From positions 23,400-87,399 of the forward strand of contig CAWAKF010000032.1 in NCBI GenBank assembly GCA_963782435.1: a stretch of 64,000 nt of DNA, given 5' to 3'. Below the pieces are notes generated by a model, which saw only the letters and a list, made by a program, of their open reading frames with translations, was not told the origin of the DNA and ran no database searches. Origin of the DNA: an uncultured delta proteobacterium (GTDB lineage Bacteria; Desulfobacterota; RBG-13-43-22). A program made the translations under genes and the position numbers. Of the stretch, positions 5,901 to 52,355 are shown one piece after another (within the stretch, counting starts at the first letter, position 1; each line of letters opens with the position of its first letter).

Positions 5901-8156
5901 TTAAATCTTAAATCTCCGCAGACGCAGAGAATTACTCACCACAGAAACCGAACTGAAGGCCATGGCCGCCGAAGCCAGGATCGGATTCAGCAAGATTCCC
6001 CAAATAGGGTAGAGTATTCCGGCAGCAATGGGAATTCCCAGAACATTGTAAAAAAAAGCCCAGAAGAGATTTTGCCGGATGGTCCGGATGGTCTGCCTAG
6101 ACAGTTTTATGGCTGTCAGAATGATCCGAAGATCATCGCGGATCAGAGTAATATCAGAGGCTTCCATCGCCACATCCGTTCCTGTGCCGATGGCGATGCC
6201 CACATCGGCCTGGGCCAGGGCCGGGGCGTCGTTGATCCCGTCTCCCACCATGGCCACTTTTTTCCCCTCCGACTGGAGGATTTTGATCTGGGCCGTCTTG
6301 TCCTGGGGCAGAACCTCGGCAATAACCCGGTCTAATTGGAGTTGGCGACCAATAGCCTGAGCCGTCTGCTGATTGTCTCCAGTGAGCATTACCACTTCCA
6401 GACCCATGCTTTTCAAACCAGACACCGCTTCCGGGGAATGTTCCTTGAGTGTATCGGCCAGGGCCATGACCCCGATAACTTTTTTGTCTCGGGCCACAAA
6501 CATCAAGGTCTTCCCCTGATTGGCCAGGGCCTCGGCAGAGACTTGAACGGAGGTCAAGTCCAGACCTTGGGACTCCATGAGTCGTTTGTTCCCGATATGG
6601 ATTTCCTGCCCTTCCCATTTTGCGGTTACCCCTTGCCCCGCAAGGGCTTCGAAATCCTCTACTCCCGCCAGGGTCAGCCCCTCTTCTTTGGCCTTTCGGA
6701 CAACGGCTTCCCCAAGGGGGTGTTCGGAATTTCTTTCCACCGATGCGGCTATGGTCAGAATTGTACTGGTCTCGATACCCTCTATGGAAACAATGTCGGT
6801 AACCGCCAACTCCCCTCGGGTTAACGTTCCTGTCTTATCAAAAACAATAGTGGTCAATTTATGGATCGACTCGAGACTTTCTCCGCCTTTGATCAGGATG
6901 CCATGTTCCGCCCCTTTGCCGGTTCCTACCATGATGGCTGTCGGGGTGGCCAGACCCAGGGCGCAGGGGCAGGCGATGATCATCACCGCCACAAAATTAA
7001 GTAAAGCAAAGGTCAGCGTGGGGGCAGGTCCCCAAAAATACCAGATGATAAAGGTCAGTACAGCAATCCCCATAACGATGGGTACAAAAACACCGGCCAC
7101 CTGGTCGGCCAGCCGCTGAATCGGGGCCTTGCTTCCCTGGGCCTGTTCTACCAGAAGAATGATTTGAGCCAGGGCGGTCTCTTCGCCGATACGGGTGGCT
7201 TCAAAGGTGAAACTCCCGTTCTTGTTCAGGGTGGCCCCGATCACCTCATCGCCGGGATTTTTATCCACCGGCAGACTTTCACCGGTAAGCATGGATTCAT
7301 CCACGGCTGAACGGCCTTCTTTAATCCGACCGTCCACCGGAATCTTCTCCCCTGGTCGAACAATTATAAGATCCCCTTTATGTACCTCCTCTACTGGAAT
7401 ATCCGTTTCCTGGTTATCCCGGATGACCCGGGCCGTCTTTGGGGCCAGGCCGATCAACTTGCGTATGGCCTCGGAGGTCTGTCCTTTGGCCCGGGCTTCG
7501 AGTAACCGCCCCAATAGGATCAAGGCAATGATCATGGCCGCGCTGTCAAAATAGATTTCAGCTTTCACGCCGCTATTATGAAAAAGGGAGGGGAAAAAGG
7601 TAACCACCGAAGAATAGATATAGGCGGATAATGTCCCTACGGCGATCAGGGTGTTCATATCGGCACTGCCATGGCGGGCCGCACCCCAGGCCCCGGTCAA
7701 AAACTGCTTACCGGCCCAGAACTGAACCGGGGTGGTCAGGACAAAAAGGATATAAAAAAGAATATAATGCGGGACATCCCGAAGATAGGGGATGTAGTGA
7801 GGCATGGAAAGGACCATGATCAGGACACCGAAAATTACACTGAAGATAAACTTTTTTTTCAACAAGGCCAGGTCTCTTTCCCGTTCCTCCCGCTCCCGAT
7901 CACGAAGCTCGGCCCGGGCCAGACCGCGGAACTGATAACCGGCGTCCTCTATGGCCTTTCTGAATTTTTCCAGATCAACCTTCTTGGGATCGTAGGTCAC
8001 CTGGGCCTTTTCAGTGGCAAAATTGACGGCCGCCTGTTCTACTCCTTCCAGTCTGCCCAGGGCCTTTTCCACGCGGACCACACAGGCGGCACAACTCATG
8101 CCGCCCACCGACAGGGCCGTCTGTTCCAAATCTTTATTATTTTCTTGTGGTTCCAT
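5901..8156 (-). CDS. copA: Copper-translocating P-type ATPase
   Basis: N-terminal HMA domain [18 protein letters not shown] motif ([13 protein letters not shown]), DKTGTLT phosphorylation site and GDGINDAP hinge. Confidence 0.9.
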
Positions 8157-8329: not shown

Positions 8330-10006
8330 TTACTGTAGTTCCCAAGTGCGGATAGCGGTCAACACCTCTTGGGAAGTATTGGTAGACCTAAGGGTTTGAA
8401 GCAGTTGTCTGTTTTGAGCTGCACGAGCAGCCAGACCTAAAACTTTAACTTGGAGGTCAGATGAGTGGGATGGGGAAAGGATCAGGAAAATAATCTCGAT
8501 GGGTTTTTCTGTTGTAAGATCTTCGACTCCCTTTCTGGGTAATCCCAAGGCGACTAACGGAGAAGAAATGCCGGTAACTCTGACGTGGGGGAAGGCTGCG
8601 CCTTCATTAAAAAAGGTCGATCCCTGTTCCTCCCGCTTCAAAACCTCTCTCAGGATGATTTCCGGATCGCTGATCTCCTTTTGCTTAGCGGTTACTTCCG
8701 CCAGTTTTTGGAGAATCGCCATTTTAGAGATTGGTTGATCCCAAATGAGAATACGCTCCGGATCAAGAAGCTGATATAACATCAGCGGGTTCAGAAGAGC
8801 AGGTTCGATTTCAGAAGGAGTTGGAGAGGGCGGGACCTTTTCTGGAATTTCCTTGAGATCCAGGATCGGACGTGGTTCCACTTCAAGGGTATCCAGAACA
8901 ATCACCGTGATTCCCCGGGCACTTTTAATAAGATTGCCAACTATGTTTTTATTCTTACCAAATTTTTTGAAAAAGGGCTTAGGTCCCGGACTCCCGATAA
9001 CAATATGCCCAACACGGTATTCTCTGGCAAACCGGAGGATAGTATCCCCGATATCTTCTCCTTTATAAGTAAACACCAGGGCCCCTAATTGCTTGGCCAA
9101 AGTCAAAGTGTCGGAGAGCAGACGCTGAGTTTGGGCGTCGATGACCGTGGCCTCCTCGGAAGGGGTTTGGACATAAACCGCATACCAGTTTCGGTTCAAT
9201 TTTCCGGCGAGCCGGGAGGTATACCGCAGTAACTTGTCGCTATTGGGGCCGCGCGAGCTCAGGCAGACCATCAACTGGTCCGGAGTGGCGTCACTTTCCT
9301 TTTCTTCCGTCTCCCGCCTTCTCAAATCGATCTGAGACGCGAGTTCCCGTAGGGTCAATTCCCGAAGTTTTTCCAGATTTGAAGTCCTAAAAAAATTGCT
9401 CAGCGCGGTCTGAATACGCTCTGGGGGATAGATTTTTCCTTCTTCCAACCGTTTTTGTAAATCTTCGGTCGATAAATCCACATCGACAATCTGGTCGGCT
9501 TCGGTTAAGATTGAATCCGGAAGACGCTCTCGAACCTTGACCCCCACAGCCTGTTCGACTAGATTGTAGAGGCTTTCTAAATGTTGGACATTCAAGGTAG
9601 TAATGACATGAATCCCTGCGGCCAGGATGTCCTGAACATCTTGATAGCGTTTGGGGTTTGCGCTCCCCGGGATATTGGTATGGGCCAGTTCATCGATAAG
9701 GGCTACTTGGGGTTTGCGCTTCAGGATGGCCTCCGTATCCATCTCTTCCACAGGAACACCGCGATATTCCTGCCGGCGCCGAGGGACGACCTCCAGCCTT
9801 TCAGACAGTCTTGTGATATCGGCCCGACCGTGAGTCTCCAAAAGTCCGATAACCAGGTCAATCCCCTCGTTTGTAAGGCGATGGCCCTCTTGGAGCATCT
9901 GGTAGGTTTTACCCACCCCGGGGCCGTAACCTAGATAAACCTTCAGCCGTCCGCGCTGGGCGTGACGAATCATCCTCAAAAAGGCATTCGCTCTGTTGTC
10001 ACTCAT
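8330..10006 (-). CDS. KdpD N-terminal sensor domain + Usp domain + PTS EIIA(Ntr)-type domain fusion protein, with no histidine-kinase core
   Basis: KdpD-N P-loop (GYGPGVGKTYQM), a Usp-like middle region, and a C-terminal 150 aa matching PTS_EIIA_2 with the phosphorylatable His context GAAFPHVRV. Last gene of the kdpFABC operon. Confidence 0.75.
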   Translation of the reverse strand: MSDNRANAFLRMIRHAQRGRLKVYLGYGPGVGKTYQMLQEGHRLTNEGIDLVIGLLETHGRADITRLSERLEVVPRRRQEYRGVPVEEMDTEAILKRKPQVALIDELAHTNIPGSANPKRYQDVQDILAAGIHVITTLNVQHLESLYNLVEQAVGVKVRERLPDSILTEADQIVDVDLSTEDLQKRLEEGKIYPPERIQTALSNFFRTSNLEKLRELTLRELASQIDLRRRETEEKESDATPDQLMVCLSSRGPNSDKLLRYTSRLAGKLNRNWYAVYVQTPSEEATVIDAQTQRLLSDTLTLAKQLGALVFTYKGEDIGDTILRFAREYRVGHIVIGSPGPKPFFKKFGKNKNIVGNLIKSARGITVIVLDTLEVEPRPILDLKEIPEKVPPSPTPSEIEPALLNPLMLYQLLDPERILIWDQPISKMAILQKLAEVTAKQKEISDPEIILREVLKREEQGSTFFNEGAAFPHVRVTGISSPLVALGLPRKGVEDLTTEKPIEIIFLILSPSHSSDLQVKVLGLAARAAQNRQLLQTLRSTNTSQEVLTAIRTWELQ

Positions 10007-10590
10007 TTATTTTGTAATTCTATCAGGGCCAAATTAAGCATCAACACATTAACCCTCGGTTCACCGAAGATTCCCAAGTCCCGGCCTTCGGTGTAGTGTC
10101 TAATCTGTTTCAAAATGGTTTGATCGCCTATCCCCCGGGCTGCGCCCACGCGGGGCGCCTGCAGTAAAGCATTTTTTAAACTGATGTGCGGGTCCAGGCC
10201 GCTGGCCGAGGCGGTTACGGCGTCGGCCGGGATCAAGACCTGAGGAGAAAGTTTATTTTCAGTACGGTATTGGTCCAGGCGTTCTTTAAGATTATCGTTC
10301 AGTTTTCGGGATAGAGGTCCAAGATTGCTGCCTCCGGAATTAAGCCCGTCATAGCCCTGCCCGGCGGCTGATGGACGAGGATGGAAGTATTTTGGATCTC
10401 CAAACCCCTGGGCGATAAGGCGCGATCCCCGGATCATCCGCTTTTCCATAATCAGCGAACCATTGGCCTTATCCGAGAATAATCCCTGGGACAGAGCCCA
10501 GACTGCAAGTGGATAAAAACCACAGAGAATCACAGCCAGGGATAAGGTGGCCAGCAAGGCGATACGAAGTTCAGCAAAAATATTTTTCAT
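10003..10590 (-). CDS. kdpC: Potassium-transporting ATPase subunit C
   Basis: About 195 aa, single N-terminal TM helix, KdpC-like sequence. Its start overlaps the kdpD-like gene start region by 4 nt. Confidence 0.85.
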   Translation of the reverse strand: MKNIFAELRIALLATLSLAVILCGFYPLAVWALSQGLFSDKANGSLIMEKRMIRGSRLIAQGFGDPKYFHPRPSAAGQGYDGLNSGGSNLGPLSRKLNDNLKERLDQYRTENKLSPQVLIPADAVTASASGLDPHISLKNALLQAPRVGAARGIGDQTILKQIRHYTEGRDLGIFGEPRVNVLMLNLALIELQNK

Positions 10591-10758: not shown

Positions 10759-12741
10759 TTAATGCCCGGGAAAGGGGCTATGAGACCACCCAGGCCATAA
10801 ATTAACAGGTTGCGCTCTGAGCAACACAGCGGCCCCTACCGGACGAAAACGCACCCCCCGCAAGGCCAAAGGAATGAGAGTAATTATAATCAGGGCATTG
10901 AAAATAACAGCACTCAGAATAGCGCTTTGAGGGGATTTAAGCCCCATGACGTTGAGGGGAGCGATAACCGGAAAGACACTCATCAGCATGGCCGGGATGA
11001 TGGCAAAGTATTTGGCCACATCGTTGGCGATACTGAAGGTGGTCAAGGCCCCTCGGGTGATGAGCAGTCTGTTTGCCTATTTCAACCACCTCGATCAACT
11101 TGGTCGGGTTGAATCCAGGTCCACCATATTGCCTGCTTCTTTGGCCGCCTGGGTCCCGGTGTTCATAGCCACCCCGACATCGGCCTGGGCCAGGGCCGGG
11201 GCATCGTTGGTGCCGTCCCCGGTCATAGCCACCAAGTGACCGGCCGCCTGTTCTTTGCGAATCAAGGCCAGCTTATCCTCCGGCTTGGCTTCGGCAATGA
11301 ATTCATCCACACCGGCCTCCCGGGCAATGGCGGCGGCTGTCAGGGGGTTGTCCCCGGTGACCATGACGGTCTTGATACCCATGGCCCTGAATCGCTCGAA
11401 ACGATCCTTCAATCCACCTTTGACAATATCCTTCAAATGGATGACCCCCAGCACCTTCTCCTTATCGACTACGAGCAAAGGGGTCCCGCCGGAAAGGGAA
11501 ATGGTGTCCACGGCTTCTTGAACCTCCAAGGGAAGATCCTTTCCAATAAAGGTCTGGACGGCGTCTATAGCCCCTTTACGGATCTGTCTTTCCCCCACAT
11601 CCACGCCACTCATTCTGGTCTGGGCGGAAAAGGTGATAAATCGGGCATCAGACATTTCAGAGATGGAACGCCCCCGTAAACCATATTGTTTAGCCAGTAC
11701 AACGATGCTTCGGCCTTCGGGTGTTTCGTCGGCCAGGGAGGCCAATTGGGCCGCATCGGCCAGGTCTTCGGTTCGTACTCCGGGGGCGGGAAGAAAGACG
11801 CTGGCCTGTCGGTCCCCCAAGGTGATGGTCCCTGTTTTGTCCAGGAGCAGTACGTCAATATCCCCCGCGGCTTCGACGGCCCGGCCGCTCATGGCCAGGA
11901 CATTTTTTTGGACCATCCGATCGATCCCTGCGATACCGATGGCACTAAGCAACCCACCGATAGTAGTGGGAATCAGGCAGACCAACAAGGCCACCAAGAC
12001 GGTCATTGAAAAGGCCACCCCCGAGTAAAGACCAAGAGGCTTCAGGGTGAGACAGACCAATAAGAAAATGATGGTCAAGGCCGAAAGCAGAATCGTCAGG
12101 GCGATTTCGTTCGGGGTTTTCTGACGATTGGCCCCTTCAACCAACTGGATCATTCGATCCAGAAAACTTTCTCCCGGATTGGCGGTTACCAGGACCTTGA
12201 TCTGGTCCGATAAAACCCTGGTACCGCCGGTGACGGCGCTTCGATCCCCGCCGGCCTCCCGGATGACCGGGGCCGACTCTCCGGTAATGGCCGATTCGTC
12301 CACCGTGGCCACCCCGGCTATGATTTCACCGTCCGAGGGAATAATCTCTCCGGCCGACACCAGGACAAGGTTCCCCTTCTTCAGGCGGTCGGCTTCGATC
12401 TGCTCCTCCGAGCCATCGGATTTCAATCGATTGGCAATGGTCTGGGTTCGGGTCTTTCGCAGGGCCTTGGCTTGGGCCTTCCCCCGTCCTTCGGCCATGG
12501 CCTCGGCGAAATTAGCGAAAAGGACGGTAAACCAGAGCCAAAGGGTGACTTGCAGGATAAACCCGAAAGGATCTTGCCCGGGCCTGAAAAATAAGTCGAG
12601 GGTGGTCAAGGCCGCCCCGACTTCGGTTACAAATATAACCGGATTTTTCAACAACGAAATCGGATTGAGTTTTTTAAATGAATCAATAATGGCCTGTTCG
12701 ATAATGGCCCGATCAAAAAGGGAATGGGTTTTAGCCGCCAT
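10759..12741 (-). pseudogene. kdpB: Potassium-transporting ATPase subunit B, interrupted by two compensating +/-1 frameshifts near 11046-11100. True pseudogene or sequencing artefact.
   Basis: The 548-aa ORF ([17 protein letters not shown] motifs) ends ...DLDSTRPS*. The -1 frame reads [14 protein letters not shown], then the original frame resumes [21 protein letters not shown]. Together these match the E. coli KdpB C-terminus. Confidence 0.75.
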
Positions 12742-12754
12742 GTTTCTTTACCCC

Positions 12755-14560
12755 TTAAAAGAGAATTTTTGATCCGGTCATCAAAAAGTGCTCGACGATT
12801 GGACCTAAGGCCAGGGCCGGAAGAAAGGTCAAGGCCCCAACGATTACGATTGTTCCAACTAAGACCAAAGTAAAAGTCAAACCCCAGACAGGAAAGCTCC
12901 CTCCTGATGGGGGAACGATTTTTTTGCCGGCCAGACTCCCGGCCAGGGCCATGACCGGGACCAGCATAATAAACCGTCCGAAAAGCATGGCTAGCCCCAG
13001 GGTGGTGTTGTACCAGATTGTATTCCCGCTCAGTCCGGCGAAGGCGCTGCCGTTATTTCCGGTAGCCGAGGAAAAGGCATAGAGTATCTCACTCAACCCG
13101 TGGGGGCCGCCATTATTCAAGCCGGCCAATCCCCATTTCCTGACCAAGGCCCAGGCCGAGAAGCCGAGAATACTGAAAATTAATATCATCAGGGCCAGGA
13201 CACTCACTTTTACATCGTAGGGTTCAATCTTTTTACCAAGATACTCGGGAGTGCGGCCGACCATTAAACCGGTCAAAAATACGGCCAGAATAACAAATAT
13301 CAGCATCCCATAAAGCCCGGCACCGACTCCCCCGAAAACAACCTCACCCAACTGGATATTGAACAGAGGGATCAATCCCCCCAAGGGGGTAAAGGAATCG
13401 TGCAGGGCATTAACGGCCCCGCAAGAGGCATCGGTGGTGATCGAGGCAAAAAGGGCGGAGTTAAATATTCCGAAACGAACTTCTTTCCCTTCCATATTCC
13501 CCATGATCGGATCTATACCAAGGGCTTGCAGACGTGGATTACCGGCCGATTCCGCCCACCAGCAGACCAAAAAAGTACAAAGGAGGAGGATGGTCATGGC
13601 GCTCCAGATGGCCCAGCCATGTTTCTGATTTTTGACCATACGGCCCAGGTAATAGGTGAGACCGCTGGGGATGAGAAAGATGGCCAGCATTTGTAAAAAG
13701 TTGGATAAGGGGGTCGGGTTCTCATAAGGGTGGGAGGCGTTGGCGTTGAAAAAACCACCCCCGTTGGTTCCCAACATCTTAATGGCCACCTGTGAAGCTA
13801 CCGGACCCTGGGGAAGGATCTGTTGCTCGACCTTCTGCTCTTTCATCAACGGATTGCCCTGTCCATCTTTGAGTTCCTGCCCGGTAGGATCTTTTTGGGG
13901 TACCTGGATGGTCAAGGGTTCGACGAGCTTAGCCGTTTCATAGGATTTAAAGTTCTGGATGATACCCTGTGAAGTAAGCAAGACAGCCAATACCAGGCTG
14001 ATAGGCAGAAGTAGATAAAGGTTGCCCCGAATTAAATCGACCCAGAAATTACCAATCGTTTTGGCTGAATGACGGGCAATACTGCGGACCAATGCCCCGG
14101 CCGCGCCCAGTCCTACAGCGGCGGAGGCAAAGTTATGAAAAACAAGACCGACCATCTGCGAGAAATAAGAGAGTGTTGATTCCCCACCATAATTCTGCCA
14201 ATTGGTGTTGGTGGTAAAACTGACCGCGGTATTAAAAGCCAAGTCGGCAGGAACCGGTCCGAATCCTTGGGGATTGAGCGGCAGCAGATGCTGAAGACGG
14301 AGAACCCCGTAGGTAAACAATAACCCGACAAGACTGAATAGAAGCAAAGAAAAAGTATAGCTTTTCCAGTCCTGCTCTTTTTTCGGGTCCAAACCCAGGA
14401 ACCGATACAAAACCCTTTCTACGGGTCTGAGCACCGGGTCAAAAAAGGTTTTGCCTTCGGGGTTCAGCACTTGAACCAGATAAATCCCTATGGGTTTGGT
14501 TAATGCCAGCAGAACCAGCATATAAAGGGTGAGTTGAATCCATCCATAAAGGTCCGTCAT
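12755..14560 (-). CDS. kdpA: Potassium-transporting ATPase subunit A
   Basis: 601-aa polytopic protein with a KdpA-like N-terminus MTDLYGWIQLTLYMLVLLALTKPIGIYL. Position in the operon between kdpF and kdpB. Confidence 0.9.
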   Translation of the reverse strand: MTDLYGWIQLTLYMLVLLALTKPIGIYLVQVLNPEGKTFFDPVLRPVERVLYRFLGLDPKKEQDWKSYTFSLLLFSLVGLLFTYGVLRLQHLLPLNPQGFGPVPADLAFNTAVSFTTNTNWQNYGGESTLSYFSQMVGLVFHNFASAAVGLGAAGALVRSIARHSAKTIGNFWVDLIRGNLYLLLPISLVLAVLLTSQGIIQNFKSYETAKLVEPLTIQVPQKDPTGQELKDGQGNPLMKEQKVEQQILPQGPVASQVAIKMLGTNGGGFFNANASHPYENPTPLSNFLQMLAIFLIPSGLTYYLGRMVKNQKHGWAIWSAMTILLLCTFLVCWWAESAGNPRLQALGIDPIMGNMEGKEVRFGIFNSALFASITTDASCGAVNALHDSFTPLGGLIPLFNIQLGEVVFGGVGAGLYGMLIFVILAVFLTGLMVGRTPEYLGKKIEPYDVKVSVLALMILIFSILGFSAWALVRKWGLAGLNNGGPHGLSEILYAFSSATGNNGSAFAGLSGNTIWYNTTLGLAMLFGRFIMLVPVMALAGSLAGKKIVPPSGGSFPVWGLTFTLVLVGTIVIVGALTFLPALALGPIVEHFLMTGSKILF

Positions 14561-14572
14561 TTTACCCTCGCA

Positions 14573-14656
14573 TCAAAATTTTTCAGGTCGAAGGACAGTT
14601 ATAAAGAGATAAATGATCAGGATAAGCCCGATAATCAATCCAATGATATCTCCCAT
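14573..14656 (-). CDS. kdpF: KdpF small subunit (27 aa)
   Basis: MGDIIGLIIGLILIIYLFITVLRPEKF, immediately upstream of kdpA. Resembles E. coli KdpF (...GYLVYALINAEAF). Too short for the ORF track. Confidence 0.6.
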   Translation of the reverse strand: MGDIIGLIIGLILIIYLFITVLRPEKF

Positions 14657-14659
14657 GAA

Positions 14660-14743
14660 TCAAAGCCTTTCACAGGCCCGCATATACAGAACACACAAGC
14701 CGAAAAAAAAGATCGTAACTAAAATATAAATAATGTCAGTCAT
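14660..14743 (-). CDS. Second KdpF-like hydrophobic small ORF (27 aa). Its ATG overlaps the sensor-kinase stop as ATGA.
   Basis: MTDIIYILVTIFFFGLCVLYMRACERL. Shares the M-x-D-I-I start and overall layout with KdpF, which begins 3 nt downstream. Confidence 0.35.
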   Translation of the reverse strand: MTDIIYILVTIFFFGLCVLYMRACERL

Positions 14744-16584
14744 GAATTATCCTCTTGCCTCAAAGTCTGATCGACCGTTCGCAGAGTAAAGGTAAAGGTG
14801 CTGCCTTTCCCTTCCTCACTTTCCGCGCTAACTGTTCCCCCGTGAGCCTCGATAATCTCTTTTACAATAGCCAGTCCTAGTCCGGCCCCTGAATTTTTTT
14901 CCTGGTTAGGGACTCGAAAGAATTGCTCGAAAATCCTGGGGAGATATTGCTTCGGGATCCCCTTTCCCGTGTCCGAGATGGAAAAACGGACCTCATTCTC
15001 TTCCGCTTTAGCTGAAAAGGTAATTTTACCGCCGGGCTGGGTGTACTTAAGGGAATTGGAAAGAAGATTGCCAAAAACATAATAAATTCTGGTCGGATCA
15101 GCCCAGACCTCGGGGAGATCTCCCGGTATGTCGACACTCAAAGTGACGCCCTGGTCGTGGGCCGCCCTCCAAAAAGGTTCCAGTGCCTCCATTTGAAGAG
15201 AATTGGGGGAAATTGTCCGGAGTTCCATCTTAGTCTTGCCGGATTCTATGCGGCTGATATCCAGCAGGTTGTTGAGAATATTGTGCAGCCGGTCGCTGTC
15301 TTCCCGGGCCGCCAAAAGAAGATCGACCTGTTGTTCCGTCAAGGGGCCTACTTTTTCTTCCAACAGGAGGTGGATGGCCATACGAACGGAAGTGAGAGGC
15401 GTTTTAAGCTGATGGGACACGGTGGAAATCATTCCTTTTTTTAGTTCATCCTGCTGTCTGAGTTGGGTGACGTCCTGTAAGATCAGTACAAACCCGGTGG
15501 GTTGTCTTTCACTATCCATGATGGGTATCGCCTCCGGGCGAAAGAAGTGCTCTTCTCCTTTGATAAAATGTTGGATAACCCTTTGGTTGCCATTGGGCTC
15601 CGTTGTGCGGTTCAGCTTAAGGACCTCCTGTACAAACCCGTTAACCCACTCCAGGGGCAAATCTTTGATAAAGGTATTAGGCTGGAGTCCAAAAGAATTT
15701 TTAGCCGCTTCTGTGGCTATTTCCACCTTTCCCTCCAGGTCGATAACCGCAACGGCCTCAGGCAGACTATCGAAAGCCTGTTGGGTGGCCCGTTGGATTC
15801 GAAACAATTTTGAACGGTTGGAACGGCGAAATTCCCGGATGCTGGCCGCCATTTCATTGAAGGCGTCGGACAGGTGTCCGATTTCATCGTGGGAACCACT
15901 TGTTACCACCAGGTTAAGATTTCCCTTTTTGATTTCATTCGCCGACTCAATCAGGTGATTGATCGGACGTAAGACCCATTTCCCTATAAAGAAGATAAAC
16001 CCAACGGCAATGATCGTTCCCGTCAATAAAAGAATATACATCCCTTTTTTCGCTGCTGCGGCATTATCGCGGGCTTGATTATTAGCCTGGGTCATATTTT
16101 GTTGATTCAATTGAAGGATTTCATCGGCCGTGTTTTTAATGATATAGAATAAAGGAAGAAGTCGGCTGAAATAAAGTTGGCGGCGAATGATAACTGAACG
16201 GGTTCCATTCTCCATCCCCTTAAGCATCATTTTGTACTGGCCAAATTGTTGCTCCAGGAGGTTTGCCTTATCGCCTTCTCCGGGAAGGGTAATGTTATTC
16301 AGCTCAGTTCGGAGGGTTTTTTCAAAGACCTGTTCATTTTTGCCGATCAGGTTTTTCCCTTTTTCCAAATATCCCTGAAGAATAAAAAGGGTACCGCTGT
16401 CTATGCGTTCTAAGGCTTCTTTCATTTCCTGGCAGGCAATGACGCTCCGGTAGTTTTCTCGGAGAATGACATCGATGGACTCCCCCAGTTTGCTGAGGTG
16501 GGTAATACTTTGAACCCCGATCACCAGGATAATGGCCAGGAGTCCCCCTAACCCAAGAGAAAGCTTTTGACGCAACCCCCACAT
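14740..16584 (-). CDS. Sensor histidine kinase (periplasmic domain, HAMP, PAS, HisKA, HATPase_c); NtrY-like
   Basis: Two N-terminal TM helices, HAMP, PAS, H-box SHQLKTPLTSV, and a C-terminal ATPase with GLGLAIVKEIIEAHGG. Confidence 0.85.
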   Translation of the reverse strand: MWGLRQKLSLGLGGLLAIILVIGVQSITHLSKLGESIDVILRENYRSVIACQEMKEALERIDSGTLFILQGYLEKGKNLIGKNEQVFEKTLRTELNNITLPGEGDKANLLEQQFGQYKMMLKGMENGTRSVIIRRQLYFSRLLPLFYIIKNTADEILQLNQQNMTQANNQARDNAAAAKKGMYILLLTGTIIAVGFIFFIGKWVLRPINHLIESANEIKKGNLNLVVTSGSHDEIGHLSDAFNEMAASIREFRRSNRSKLFRIQRATQQAFDSLPEAVAVIDLEGKVEIATEAAKNSFGLQPNTFIKDLPLEWVNGFVQEVLKLNRTTEPNGNQRVIQHFIKGEEHFFRPEAIPIMDSERQPTGFVLILQDVTQLRQQDELKKGMISTVSHQLKTPLTSVRMAIHLLLEEKVGPLTEQQVDLLLAAREDSDRLHNILNNLLDISRIESGKTKMELRTISPNSLQMEALEPFWRAAHDQGVTLSVDIPGDLPEVWADPTRIYYVFGNLLSNSLKYTQPGGKITFSAKAEENEVRFSISDTGKGIPKQYLPRIFEQFFRVPNQEKNSGAGLGLAIVKEIIEAHGGTVSAESEEGKGSTFTFTLRTVDQTLRQEDNS

Positions 16585-16609: not shown

Positions 16610-16626
16610 TTGCAAACTCCAGGCCA
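16610..16626 (-). promoter_or_regulatory. Sigma-54 (-24/-12) promoter candidate upstream of the histidine kinase gene
   Basis: Minus strand reads TGGCCTGGAGTTTGCAA. GG and GC are spaced as in the TGGCACG-N4-TTGCW consensus. It lies about 26 nt upstream of the kinase start codon. Confidence 0.5.
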
Positions 16627-16779
16627 AAGATTTCTACAACCAACTTGTTGTAAAAATAGAGTTTTTAAATTTAGTGATATTGACCGGATTGCATTTCTCA
16701 AATGAAGACCCTAAAATGTCTTGAAAATTGCAAGGGAGAGAATAACGGGTTTCTATAGGAAGACAGGAGATTAGGAGTC

Positions 16780-18120
16780 TTATATCCCGTATTTTTTACG
16801 ACGCCGCCAAAGGGTGGCCTGGTCGATCCCCAGGATGTCGGCGGCCTCTTGAAGGGATTTGGTGAAGGCTAAGATTCTTCGGATATGTTGTTCTTCGATT
16901 TTTTCCAGGGTGACCGGATCACCGATGGTTGGGAGGGATTCGTTCGGGAGCAGGTTGCCGGGAAGGCATTCGATCCCGACATGCTCGGTTCGGCAAAAGA
17001 TAGCCGCCCGCTCAATAATATTACTTAATTCCCGGACATTGCCCGGCCAAGTATATTGCTTGAGTGCCTGGACCGCTTCCGGGGTAAACCCCAAAAAAGA
17101 GCGATGATTGCTCCGGCCATAGAAAATCAGTAATTGTTCTGCAAGGGCTATCACATCGTCCGGACGTTCACGCAAGGGAGGAATTTCAATCTGAATCACA
17201 TTGAGTCGAAAAAAGAGATCTTCCCGAAAACGACCTTCCTTGACCGCTTTTTCCAAATCCCAATTTGTAGCTGTAATAAGACGAACATCGGCTTTACGAG
17301 TTGAGGAGTCACCAACCCGTTCATATTCCCTTTCCTGGATAAAACGCAGCAGTTTGGGTTGAAGGGCCAGGGGCAAATCACCGATCTCATCCAGAAGGAG
17401 TGTTCCTCCCTGGCAGGCGGCAATACGACCGGGGTTGTCGCGGATGGCCCCGGTGAAAGCCCCTTTGATATGTCCGAATAGCTCGCTTTCGAGCAATTCC
17501 GAAGAAAACGATGGGCAGGAAATGATACCGAGGGGTTTGGCCGCCCTGTTGCTCCAGGAATGAATGGCCTTGGCCAGGACGGTTTTGCCGGTTCCGCTTT
17601 CTCCACGAAGAAGAATCGTGGCCTCGGATGGAGCAGCCTGCCGGGCCAGATTGACCGCTCGCTGCATCGTTGGGCTGGTACTATCCAGTCTAATCTCGGG
17701 ATTGGAGCGTCCCAGGTCATCCTGCAAGGCGGCCACTTTTTGCTCCAGGGTGCGTATCTGAAACGTTTTTTGGACGGCCAGTTTGACCTGGGTGGGAGTG
17801 AAAGGTTTGGGAATATAGTCCGTAGCGCCACGACGCATGGCCTCAACCGCCGTGTCAATGGAGACATAGGCGGTGATAACAATGATTTTGAGCCAGGGCG
17901 ACGCAGCCAGTAAGGCTGGAATCAAATCAAGGCCGTCCTCGGTGCCGAGACGCAAATCGACAAAAGCCAGATCAAAAGACCGGTGTGCGGCTTCAATCAG
18001 GGCATCCTGAAAATTGCTGACAGCGATAACCTTATGGCCTTCGGTCTCCAGGCAAACCGATAAGGTCTTACGGATATTGACTTCGTCATCCACAATTAGA
18101 ATTTGTAAGGCCTGCATCAT
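16780..18120 (-). CDS. Sigma-54-dependent response regulator (REC + AAA+ with GAFTGA + Fis-type HTH); NtrC/NtrX family
   Basis: Motifs [21 protein letters not shown], and a C-terminal HTH. I chose the start at 18120, whose ATG overlaps the der stop as ATGA. Confidence 0.85.
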
Positions 18121-19436: not shown

Positions 19437-19767
19437 AAATGAATCCTTTTGGACTGTTTTGACCTAATTTTAAATTACTTAAAATTGATTTTAACACAGG
19501 TTGGTTTATACTGCAAATTACATTGGAATGGAGGGTGCCCTAGGAAACCTTTCCGAGAGAGGCCGTTTTTTTTGGTTGACAACCCTTATGAAAGGTTTAA
19601 ATTACCCTCCGTCATCCCCAATCTTGCAGGATGACCGGCGAATTCTCCGAAACCAAGCCGGAGGAGCGGGGGACCCGATCAATCGGGGCGAATCCGTTTA
19701 TACGGTAGGGCACTATTCACCTCCTGCCCGAGCCCGTCAGCTAACCTCGCAGCCATGAGGGGGTAAT

Positions 19768-21626
19768 TTGATAAAGATCGTTGTTCTAACGGTTCTCAAT
19801 GCCGGGCTGATTGTACTGTTTGGTGCCCTTTTGAGACGGCGCAATCTTCTCTCCTATCATCAGGGGGGGAGGGTCTGGCTCACCTATTTGTCCATAGGGG
19901 TCATCACCCTAATGGACGAGTTTACCTCCATCTTTTACGTCCCGGCGGAGGCCTACCGTTTTATCGGTTTAAGCGCCATACCCTTTATCGTCATCACCAG
20001 CCTGTTGATCCGTTTTGTCAGCACCCGCCTTACGGAAATTGCCGAAATCCTCGAGCATCATCAACTCATCGGAGGCGGGGTCTACTCTTTTCTTATCTGG
20101 TCTTGGGGCCGATGATGTCTTTTGTGGCCGTATCCTCGATTATGGTGGATTACATCCTGACCGCCTGTATCTCCGCGGTCAGTGCGGTCTCCAATGCCAC
20201 CTCCTTTTTCCCGATCCCTCAATCAACGGCCTTGATTCTGGTGCTGGCCATCATCTGGGCCGTGGCCGGTTTGAATATTTCCGGGATCAGGGAAAATGCC
20301 CGGTTCACCTTCATGATCTTTATCGGTGCTGCTTTTGTCATTCTTAATTTGATCGTCTCCGGTATCCTTAATCTGGACCAAGGTTCTTTTGGCCAAATGC
20401 ACCTGGCGACATCTCAGGCCTTTAAACACGTCAACACCGGGTCGATGCTGGGGGATTACGGCCATGTTATTTCAAGTATTGCTTTTTGCATCCTGGCCTA
20501 CTCCGGGGTTGAATCTGTGCTCCAAACGGCCGGGTTTGTGCGCAGTTGGAAAGAAATCCGTAAGGCCTACTGGTTTCTGGCCTTGACTGTGGGGGTGGTG
20601 ACCCCTTTAGTGACCATCCTGGTCCTATCGACCCGGATCGATTTCAAGGCCCATGAAGGGGACCTGATTACCCATTATGCCACCTTGCTAAATGGGATCC
20701 CTTTTGGCTTGGTGGTAGGTGCCCTGGCCAGCTTTACCCTGACTCTAGCCGTGAATACCGCCTTTGTGGCCTCCAGCGAGCTCATGGAACGGGTTGCCGA
20801 CCGCTACGGTTTTCATTGGCTGATCGCCACCAATCGGCGACAATCTCTGTATCGTATCCATCTGTCCAGTGCCGTTTTCTTTTCTTTTATTGTCCTTCTC
20901 ACCATGGGGAGTCAGGCGCAACTGGCTAACATGTATGCCCTGGGGCTTTTGGCTTCCTTTTGTATCAACATGGGTTCCCTTATTATTTACCGGTATTTTC
21001 AAGGTAAGGGGGATGGGATCACCTATTCCACCAGCCGCTTCGGAACTCTGATTCTCTGGGTCATTCTGGTCAGTTGTTTTATTTTTCTGGCTTTTGACAA
21101 ACCCCAGGCGACCATGCTTTGGGCCACGGTGACCGGAGCGATGCTCCTTCTTGGATTTTGGGTGGCTAAAAAACGTTCTCCGGAGACCAAAGAGATCGAA
21201 CAGGGGGAAAATGAAATGGGGATGCTTCTTTATCTGGCCGAGTCCGAGGAGCGGGATATTCATCTCTTTTTCAGAAGATCGGAGGAAACCGATGAGACCA
21301 AGGCCAAAGGGAATGAGGCCTATATTTCTTTTTATTCCCCTCGGGTGGGTGGGCTACCCCCTAAGACGGTGCCCAATCAATTTCGCTTTCCTTTGTCCAA
21401 AATCAGTCTTTTTCATCGTATCATGAGCCTGCTCCGGGTGGTCGAATATGAAATGGGCGATCGATCCGTTACGGTTCATTTTGGCTGGCCCATGTCTTCC
21501 TGGTGGGAGCGGTTATCCATCGGGGTCATGGTTTTCAATCTGATGAAGTTACCGAGACTTTTTCCTCAATTCGAATTCGAAATTTATTATAAAAAGCGGC
21601 CCTTCCTTTCAAAAAAGGGAGATTAA
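19768..21626 (+). pseudogene. APC-superfamily transporter with a long cytoplasmic C-terminal domain. It is split by a -1 frameshift in a GGGG run near 20105. Possible sequencing error.
   Basis: ORF 19768..20115 is TM1-3, and ORF 20103..21626 continues the same transporter. Adding one G at tcttggggccg restores ...IWSWGPMMSFVAV. Confidence 0.6.
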
Positions 21627-49689: not shown

Positions 49690-52143
<2,454 letters not shown>

Positions 52144-52355
52144 TCGCCGCATAAACGTCTTCGAGGGATTCTAACAGGGCGTCAAAAAAACGGTCAGTTA
52201 ACAACCGGTTCCAGCGGACGGCGTACCGCCTCCGCTGAACCGGAACGTGGTTTCGGTCTCGGAATCGGTAAGGAGGCTGAAGGATGGACGGAATACGCAG
52301 TGAAGTTTTTGGAAAAACACATATCTATGTGAGAGCCATGTTCATAATGGGAATT

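Follow-up and report, generated by a model that had tools for sequence, protein, structure and literature searches.

A KdpD-N/Usp protein with a C-terminal EIIA(Ntr)-like domain encoded at the end of a kdpFABC cassette in an uncultured delta proteobacterium

Here we describe a kdp (K+ uptake) cassette located on a 64,000-nucleotide stretch of DNA, hereafter the window, from an uncultured delta proteobacterium (GenBank assembly GCA_963782435.1, contig CAWAKF010000032.1, positions 23,400 to 87,399 of the forward strand). Read along its coding strand, the cassette comprises the gene for a sigma-54-type response regulator (RR), two enhancer-like sites and a -24/-12 promoter element, the gene for a membrane histidine kinase (HK), a 27-residue open reading frame (ORF), kdpF, kdpA, kdpB, kdpC, and a last gene whose product joins the N-terminal domain of KdpD (KdpD-N) and a Usp domain to an EIIA domain of the phosphotransferase system (PTS). 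Domain composition, residue conservation, gene order and distribution of this fusion were examined, and are used below to weigh a regulatory role for it against several alternatives.

The fusion protein and its conserved residues

The fusion gene and the parts of its product (numbered in amino acids, aa) are located as follows, with the basis of each assignment in brackets:

8330..10006, minus strand: fusion gene, KdpD-N, Usp, linker and EIIA, 558 aa (ORF with ATG start)
9329..9958, minus strand: KdpD N-terminal P-loop domain, aa 17-226 (PF02702, structure match, residues)
8894..9277, minus strand: Usp domain, aa 244-371 (fold match; Pfam score sub-threshold)
8792..8884, minus strand: proline-rich flexible linker, aa 375-405, EVEPRPILDLKEIPEKVPPSPTPSEIEPALL (predicted local distance difference test, pLDDT, below 50)
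8348..8770, minus strand: EIIA(Ntr)-like domain, aa 413-553 (PF00359; PDB matches)
8585..8587, minus strand: codon of H474, the predicted phospho-acceptor histidine (aligned to E. coli PtsN H73)

Sequence matches were scored against Pfam and NCBIfam, and fold was assessed by Foldseek comparison of PDB entries with an AlphaFold2 (AF2) model, for which an alignment of 72 orthologues served as input. PF02702 covers aa 17-226 with 303.9 bits (E 6.3e-91; gathering cut-off 26.1), and the same domain matches PDB entry 2R8R both by sequence (E 3e-65) and by fold (target TM-score 0.94). The Usp family PF00582 scores 19.6 bits at aa 252-341, under its cut-off of 24, and the domain is supported by its fold, which matches the Usp:c-di-AMP structure of S. 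aureus KdpD (7JI4; target TM-score 0.86, E 4e-8). PTS_EIIA_2 (PF00359) covers aa 413-553 with 65.3 bits (E 7.8e-18; cut-off 27). PtsN proteins (1A6J, 2A0J, 3URR, 4GQX) are the only solved relatives of the EIIA part at the sequence level, and these same PtsN/EIIA(Ntr) entries rank above sugar EIIAs in the fold comparison, with target TM-scores of 0.77-0.85. An initial annotation, made from the sequence alone, had called the KdpD-N, Usp and EIIA domains and had placed the fusion at the end of kdpFABC; all of these calls are borne out, as kdpF, kdpA, kdpB and kdpC lie upstream and the fusion ATG shares an ATGA overlap with the kdpC stop codon.

No transmembrane, GAF, HisKA or HATPase part was detected in the 558-aa protein by the Pfam scan. 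It scores 356.3 against a cut-off of 550 with the NCBIfam model of the 'KdpD-like non-kinase potassium sensor' (NF038185), which covers only aa 7-339, and 336 against 1123 with the model of full-length KdpD (NF007793), to the first 372 profile positions of which aa 8-371 align. The AF2 model contains three confidently predicted domains (aa 17-230, 244-371 and 410-557) separated by disordered segments at aa 230-241 and aa 375-405, the latter being the linker of about 30 residues, which varies in both length and sequence among orthologues. The predicted TM-score (pTM) of the whole fusion is only 0.45 and a fixed packing of the domains is not predicted. Because the linker is disordered and pTM is low, we regard the EIIA domain as tethered to the remainder of the protein rather than packed against it.

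Residue conservation was counted in an alignment of 72 full-length fusions. Within the EIIA domain, H474, P473, R458, E459 and T464 are invariant (72/72) and S463 is present in 71/72. When aligned to 1A6J, H474 corresponds to H73 and R458 to R57 of E. coli PtsN, such that the 'AAFPH' motif (aa 470-474), previously noted as an intact phospho-histidine context, does end in the expected acceptor residue. The phospho-site residues are also kept in distant representatives down to 35% identity, the sole degenerate exception being P0168, a distant representative without the phospho-histidine. In addition to an invariant acceptor site, the domain thus has the flexible attachment that would be expected of a domain shuttling between a phospho-donor and a target.

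The KdpD-N domain is equally well conserved. The Walker A motif G26YGPGVGKT34 (G26-x5-G32K33T34), the Walker B residues D105/E106, and R186 are found in 72/72 sequences, and Y35 occupies the position of E. coli W39 in 69/72. G32/K33/T34, D105/E106, R186 and Y35 correspond, respectively, to G36/K37/T38, D109/E110, R190 and W39 of the E. coli serine kinase. In E. coli, KdpD-N acts as an atypical serine kinase which phosphorylates S162 of KdpB and, when K+ is high, inhibits the pump (PMC11018627). The KdpB encoded in the window has TGES at aa 153-156, with the target Ser156 present. Since the catalytic residues are invariant and KdpB keeps TGES, KdpD-N of the fusion is predicted to be a serine kinase as well, and the earlier description of KdpD-N/Usp as a sensing module is too narrow.

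Distribution and the kdp cassette

Related proteins were sought in a collection of 5.8 billion proteins. Among its clusters at 90% identity, at least 120 combine PF02702 with PF00359 at 69-100% identity to the fusion, and an exhaustive search of 50%-identity representatives returned about a dozen further full-length fusion clusters at 35-64% identity, together with EIIA-less relatives. Three of the proteins (P0129, P0138 and P0153, approximately 750 aa) consist of two KdpD-N/Usp units in tandem with no kinase or EIIA domain, and another, P0128 (394 aa), is a candidate EIIA-less protein encoded on a contig of 2.2 kb. P0124 (551 aa), in which KdpD-N/Usp is followed by 180 aa without a Pfam match, was considered as a case of an alternative C-terminal domain and rejected; its contig is full of fragmented genes and the protein is probably a frameshifted EIIA fusion.

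The phylogenetic distribution called for by the initial annotation was obtained by scanning one genome per GTDB species with a seven-sequence EIIA alignment, which found the EIIA part encoded in 198 species-representative genomes. Locus comparisons were performed on the best 80 loci of these 198 genomes. By record title, these comprise 38 Thermodesulfobacteriota or 'delta proteobacteria' (including the isolate Syntrophorhabdus aromaticivorans UI and metagenome-assembled genomes (MAGs) labelled Desulfomonile tiedjei, Syntrophales and Deferrimicrobiaceae), 32 Aminicenantes, 4 Krumholzibacteria, 5 'uncultured Eubacteriales' and 1 Terriglobales. The closest relatives are the Thermodesulfobacteriota MAGs L001, L002 and L005. 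KdpB, the RR and the KdpD-N part are 70-85% identical between records labelled as different phyla, and these identities suggest that the whole cassette has spread laterally.

In every locus with visible upstream DNA, EIIA is joined to KdpD-N/Usp. Gene order could be classified at 74 of the 80 loci, the other 6 lying too near a contig edge. The gene directly upstream of the fusion is kdpC in 64 of the 74 and an HK gene, sometimes overlapping, in 7; kdpB is the nearest recognised gene in 2, and no gene was recognised within 1.6 kb in the last. An HK is encoded in every locus with enough flanking sequence, and a sigma-54 RR wherever the flank reaches. In loci L014, L018, L019, L021 and L028 the fusion gene comes after (RR)-HK and before kdpFABC, behind which stands a second KdpD-N/Usp gene that is EIIA-less. 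This placement of the second copy after kdpABC ties the EIIA-bearing copy to the kinase, and the two KdpD-N/Usp paralogues suggest a division of labour. L075 also has the order HK-fusion-kdpABC, on a contig which ends before any second copy could show.

The remaining elements of the cassette in the window are:

10003..10590, minus strand: kdpC (TIGR00681, 190.8 bits, cut-off 152.55)
10759..12741, minus strand: kdpB, with three 1-nt indels (TGES at aa 153-156)
12755..14560, minus strand: kdpA (90% identical to the L001 orthologue)
14573..14656, minus strand: kdpF, 27 aa (TIGR02115, 29.9 bits, cut-off 26.85)
14660..14743, minus strand: hydrophobic 27-aa peptide MTDIIYILVTIFFFGLCVLYMRACERL, ahead of kdpF (conserved ORF; its ATG overlaps the HK stop)
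14740..16584, minus strand: membrane HK, 614 aa, two transmembrane segments-HAMP-PAS-HisKA-HATPase (domain scan)
16611..16626, minus strand: near-consensus -24/-12 promoter TGGCCTGGAGTTTGCA, 27 nt upstream of the HK ATG (motif match)
16689..16733, minus strand: paired palindromic enhancer-like sites TTGCAATTTTCAA (16721-16733) and TTGAGAAATGCAA (16689-16701), 32 bp apart (motif)
16780..18120, minus strand: sigma-54 RR, REC-AAA+ (GAFTGA)-HTH_8 (domain scan and motif)

The fusion had been described as kinase-less, which is correct for the protein itself, as it contains no HK or RR parts, yet an HK and an RR are encoded immediately upstream in the same cassette (14740-16584 and 16780-18120), and the HK has been split off rather than lost. 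The best family similarities of the HK transmitter are to PhoR, PnpS and WalK. PtsN is known to bind PhoR as well as KdpD.

The intergenic region between the HK and RR genes measures 195 bp. Under a strict pattern, 35 of 59 loci have a -24/-12 element 40-50 nt ahead of the HK gene, and most of the others show, by eye, a near-match in the same place. The enhancer-like motif TTG-N7-CAA, searched from -250 to -55, is present in 50 of 57 loci as compared to 3.1 expected from shuffles, clustered at -150/-118 from the HK start; the palindromes in the window fit the form TTGCA-N3-TNCAA. Positions of both promoter and enhancer sites are conserved across genomes labelled as several phyla. From these motif matches, kdp transcription is predicted to be sigma-54-dependent.

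In the window, kdpB is split into two ORFs by one deletion and two insertions near 11112, 11064 and 10817, as judged against the 86%-identical L001 orthologue, and its frame is otherwise conserved. These indels are probably assembly or long-read errors, given that many related long-read MAG loci are similarly fragmented; a kdpB pseudogene is possible.

The 27-aa peptide has no NCBIfam match. Almost all of the related loci inspected keep its motif FFGLCxLYxRACERL, and the peptide accompanies kdpF-kdpA even where the HK is located elsewhere (L021). Candidate roles are those of a leader peptide or of a small Kdp subunit new to the literature. A further variation is seen among the nearest relatives, in L001 (7433-8683) and in L006-L009, where an extra gene without a counterpart in the window lies between kdpC and the fusion. 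Its 416-aa product in L001 combines a Usp-like region with a hydrophobic membrane segment and with a C-terminal region that by eye resembles the transmembrane-GAF middle of KdpD; if this resemblance holds, KdpD in L001 and L006-L009 would be split into at least three proteins.

Directly downstream of the fusion gene, after a 170-bp spacer, lies a copA-type heavy-metal P-type ATPase gene (5901-8156, minus strand) encoding an N-terminal CxxC heavy-metal-associated domain and a CPC motif. The same neighbour occurs in L002 and L005 (86-89% identity), which makes these Thermodesulfobacteriota MAGs the nearest relatives by synteny. On the other side, pointing away from the gene string der(engA)-RR-HK-kdp, a c-di-AMP (ydaO/yuaA) riboswitch (19626-19770, plus strand, 83 bits) is located upstream of an AA_permease_2-family transporter gene (20103-21626), and its presence indicates that the organism uses c-di-AMP signalling. 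Despite the riboswitch, c-di-AMP is named here as a possible Usp ligand only, because C248-L-S250-S-R252-G-P-N255-S256 of the fusion matches just 3 of the 5 positions of the c-di-AMP motif (A/G/C)-x-S-x-S-x2-N-(Y/F). Further along the window, a 2-kb stretch (49906-52152) stands out by its G+C content (62.5% compared to approximately 46% in its neighbours) and by long ORFs, exceeding 730 aa, on each strand.

A proposed regulatory role and its alternatives

In both E. coli and rhizobia, unphosphorylated PtsN binds KdpD and stimulates kdp expression, whereas in P. putida phosphorylated PtsN is the form active toward KdpD; the contact site of E. coli PtsN is the KdpD transmitter, and rhizobia carry a second ptsN (ptsN2) within the kdp cluster (PMC13104625). 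The initial proposal that a PtsN-type input has been built covalently into a Kdp regulator is in keeping with these known contacts between PtsN and KdpD. The interpretation towards which we lean, with modest confidence, is that the fusion is a soluble three-domain regulator of KdpFABC whose EIIA phospho-acceptor gates the HK, the KdpB serine kinase, or both. Under this proposal, the sigma-54 RR would bind the two enhancer sites and drive the -24/-12 promoter ahead of HK-(27-aa peptide)-kdpF-A-B-C-fusion, and the fusion would represent the soluble half of a 'split KdpD'. As a predicted atypical serine kinase, the P-loop domain at its N-terminus would phosphorylate Ser156 in the TGES of KdpB and thereby switch the pump off. 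The EIIA domain, on its flexible proline-rich tether, is predicted to be phosphorylated at H474 by the HPr or NPr belonging to a regulatory PTS, and its phosphorylation state would modulate the co-encoded HK (and hence sigma-54-dependent kdp transcription), the serine-kinase domain in cis, or both. Phosphoenolpyruvate status and carbon/nitrogen status would in this way be fed directly into K+ uptake, following the logic by which PtsN acts on E. coli KdpD, but within a single polypeptide.

Either target of the EIIA domain may apply. The co-encoded PhoR-like HK is a candidate because PtsN binds the KdpD transmitter, because HK and fusion strictly co-occur, and because loci exist in which the two genes are adjacent; the serine-kinase domain may likewise be addressed in cis. 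As to its sign, the effect could go either way, E. coli and P. putida providing differing precedents. A stronger form of the proposal, in which the phosphorylation state of EIIA gates the serine kinase in cis, so that the PTS switches KdpB post-translationally, while also setting kdp transcription through the HK, is put forward tentatively and is less than likely as it stands. If true, carbon/nitrogen status would reach both the transcriptional and the post-translational control of the K+ pump through a single polypeptide.

Several observations weigh against a role of the fusion as a PTS-responsive regulator. The residue equivalent to PtsN H120 is Q519, with Gln in 62/72 orthologues and His in 8/72 (divergent members), so that the second active-site histidine of PtsN is generally missing; we speculate that Gln in this position would be compatible with a terminal acceptor that never passes its phosphate on. 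The EIIA domain scores below the PtsN orthologue models TIGR01419 (49.1, cut-off 138.7) and NF008145 (38.8, cut-off 221), and this, together with Q519, qualifies its description as EIIA(Ntr)-type, which stands insofar as PtsN is its closest relative by sequence and fold. Neither the window nor the flanks of the 80 related loci yielded an EI, HPr or NPr gene, in a search (tblastn for HPr and NPr, with E. coli and B. subtilis probe sequences) that says nothing on whole genomes. The partner HK is PhoR-like and not the KdpD transmitter that PtsN contacts in E. coli, and contact of the EIIA domain with any partner is itself a prediction. Finally, the three frameshifts in kdpB could mean that the system is decaying in this particular genome.

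The best-surviving alternative, although in our judgement an unlikely one, is that the fusion acts on transcription only, as the cytoplasmic input half of a split KdpD in which KdpD-N/Usp scaffolds the HK and RR and EIIA tunes the kinase, with no serine-kinase action on KdpB. A split-HK reading of this type has been proposed for D. vulgaris DVU3336, E. coli PtsN acts on a transmitter domain, and the 7 loci in which the fusion directly follows the HK gene (sometimes overlapping it), with another KdpD-N/Usp after kdpABC in five of them, point in the same direction. Pure scaffolding would not, however, require the serine-kinase catalytic residues, all of which are invariant, and both the isolated KdpD-N domain, active as a serine kinase, and the short Deinococcus KdpD, stimulated by c-di-AMP, phosphorylate KdpB (PMC11018627). 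In 64 loci, moreover, the fusion is translationally linked to kdpC and not to the HK.

Quite unlikely, in our estimate, is a second alternative in which the EIIA fold has degenerated into a ligand- or protein-binding module that takes no part in a phosphorelay, its hosts perhaps being without PTS donors. The glutamine found in most orthologues at the H120 position, the loss of the phospho-histidine in P0168, the lack of PTS genes in the window and 80-locus flanks, and scores under both the PtsN and FruA equivalog cut-offs all favour such a module. What it does not account for is the pattern of a live phospho-acceptor site, i.e. five invariant residues and S463 in all but one of the 72 fusions, maintained in relatives of 35-50% identity. 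Regulatory PTS sets without transporters (PtsI, PtsP, PtsH and IIA) are, furthermore, reported in Geobacteraceae and Pelobacter (PMC3543383).

Annotation of the family is inconsistent: NCBI records call it 'PTS sugar transporter subunit IIA', JGI records 'sensor histidine kinase KdpD', and neither automatic name fits the domain content. It is very improbable that the protein is either the EIIA of a normal sugar PTS or a KdpD histidine kinase of the usual kind, these names and the best NCBIfam EIIA score (fruA IIA domain, 53 bits) being set against a fruA cut-off of 103.5, the lack of any EIIB or EIIC among 10 neighbouring ORFs in a Pfam scan, the lack of HisKA, HATPase, transmembrane and GAF parts, and an invariant kdp context, which together refute both. 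An artefactual fusion produced by frameshift or mis-assembly, as might be suspected from the three kdpB indels in the same window and from related contigs riddled with frameshifts, is refuted with near certainty because the single ORF recurs in hundreds of independent assemblies, including that of the isolate S. aromaticivorans UI, and because at least 120 clusters and full-length relatives down to 35% identity share it, the EIIA part being encoded in 198 species-representative genomes.

Comparison with known Kdp and PTS systems

In the literature searched, which left most subscription journals out of reach, no description of a KdpD-EIIA fusion was found; it is mentioned neither in the KdpD serine-kinase survey and its supplements (PMC11018627), nor in a 2026 review of PTS-Ntr (PMC13104625), nor in a comparative paper on sigma-54. 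The fusion is a widespread, conserved and apparently undescribed variant of the split sigma-54-dependent Kdp system. Its significance lies in hard-wiring a link that in E. coli is known only as a contact between two separate proteins. As a domain fusion it provides 'Rosetta stone' evidence for the PtsN-KdpD partnership, which has so far been studied in few Proteobacteria only and with conflicting signs, and indicates that this partnership is a design principle in wide use, extending as far as Aminicenantes and Krumholzibacteria. A soluble, single-chain fusion also offers a simple experimental handle on how EIIA phosphorylation may control Kdp, be it via the KdpB serine kinase, the HK, or both.

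With the PtsN-KdpD systems of E. coli, P. putida, R. leguminosarum and S. fredii, the fusion shares the EIIA(Ntr) fold, a conserved phospho-histidine and arginine and a link to Kdp, and PtsN proteins are its closest structures. PtsN, however, is a free protein of approximately 160 aa, usually encoded in the rpoN operon, which binds the KdpD transmitter, whereas the EIIA described here is the C-terminal domain of a 558-aa kdp-operon protein, covalently tethered to KdpD-N/Usp and accompanied by a PhoR-like partner kinase, with Gln at the H120 position and scores below the PtsN cut-offs.

The canonical E. coli KdpD/KdpE system likewise controls kdpFABC and has a homologous KdpD-N and Usp. It differs in that KdpD is one 894-aa membrane protein with transmembrane, GAF, DHp and CA parts, paired with an OmpR-type KdpE and acting on a sigma-70 promoter, whereas in the cassette described here these functions are distributed over separate proteins and transcription is predicted to depend on sigma-54.

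Short KdpD-N/Usp proteins are common and phosphorylate KdpB in vitro (PMC11018627). Such proteins (NF038185, Deinococcus geothermalis KdpD and the cyanobacterial short KdpD) resemble the fusion in lacking transmembrane, GAF and HK parts, in keeping the serine-kinase residues, and in being encoded with kdpABC. They end after the Usp domain, whereas the fusion carries an additional EIIA, matches the c-di-AMP motif in part only, and with 356 bits falls short of the 550 set for their family.

The sigma-54 regulator DVU3334 of D. vulgaris Hildenborough acts on the kdp operon to which it belongs, and the kinase there 'appears to be split' between DVU3335 and DVU3336, the latter comprising K+-sensor and UspA (PMC3333781, PMC4641369). 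The cassette in the window is of the DVU3334-DVU3339 type, having a GAFTGA-containing, NtrC-type sigma-54 RR predicted to target its own operon, a separate HK, and a separate KdpD-N/Usp protein beside kdpFABC, all in one kdp cluster. DVU3336 is described with the K+-sensor and UspA only, whereas here an EIIA domain has been appended and the genes are arranged in the order RR-HK-kdpFABC-fusion.

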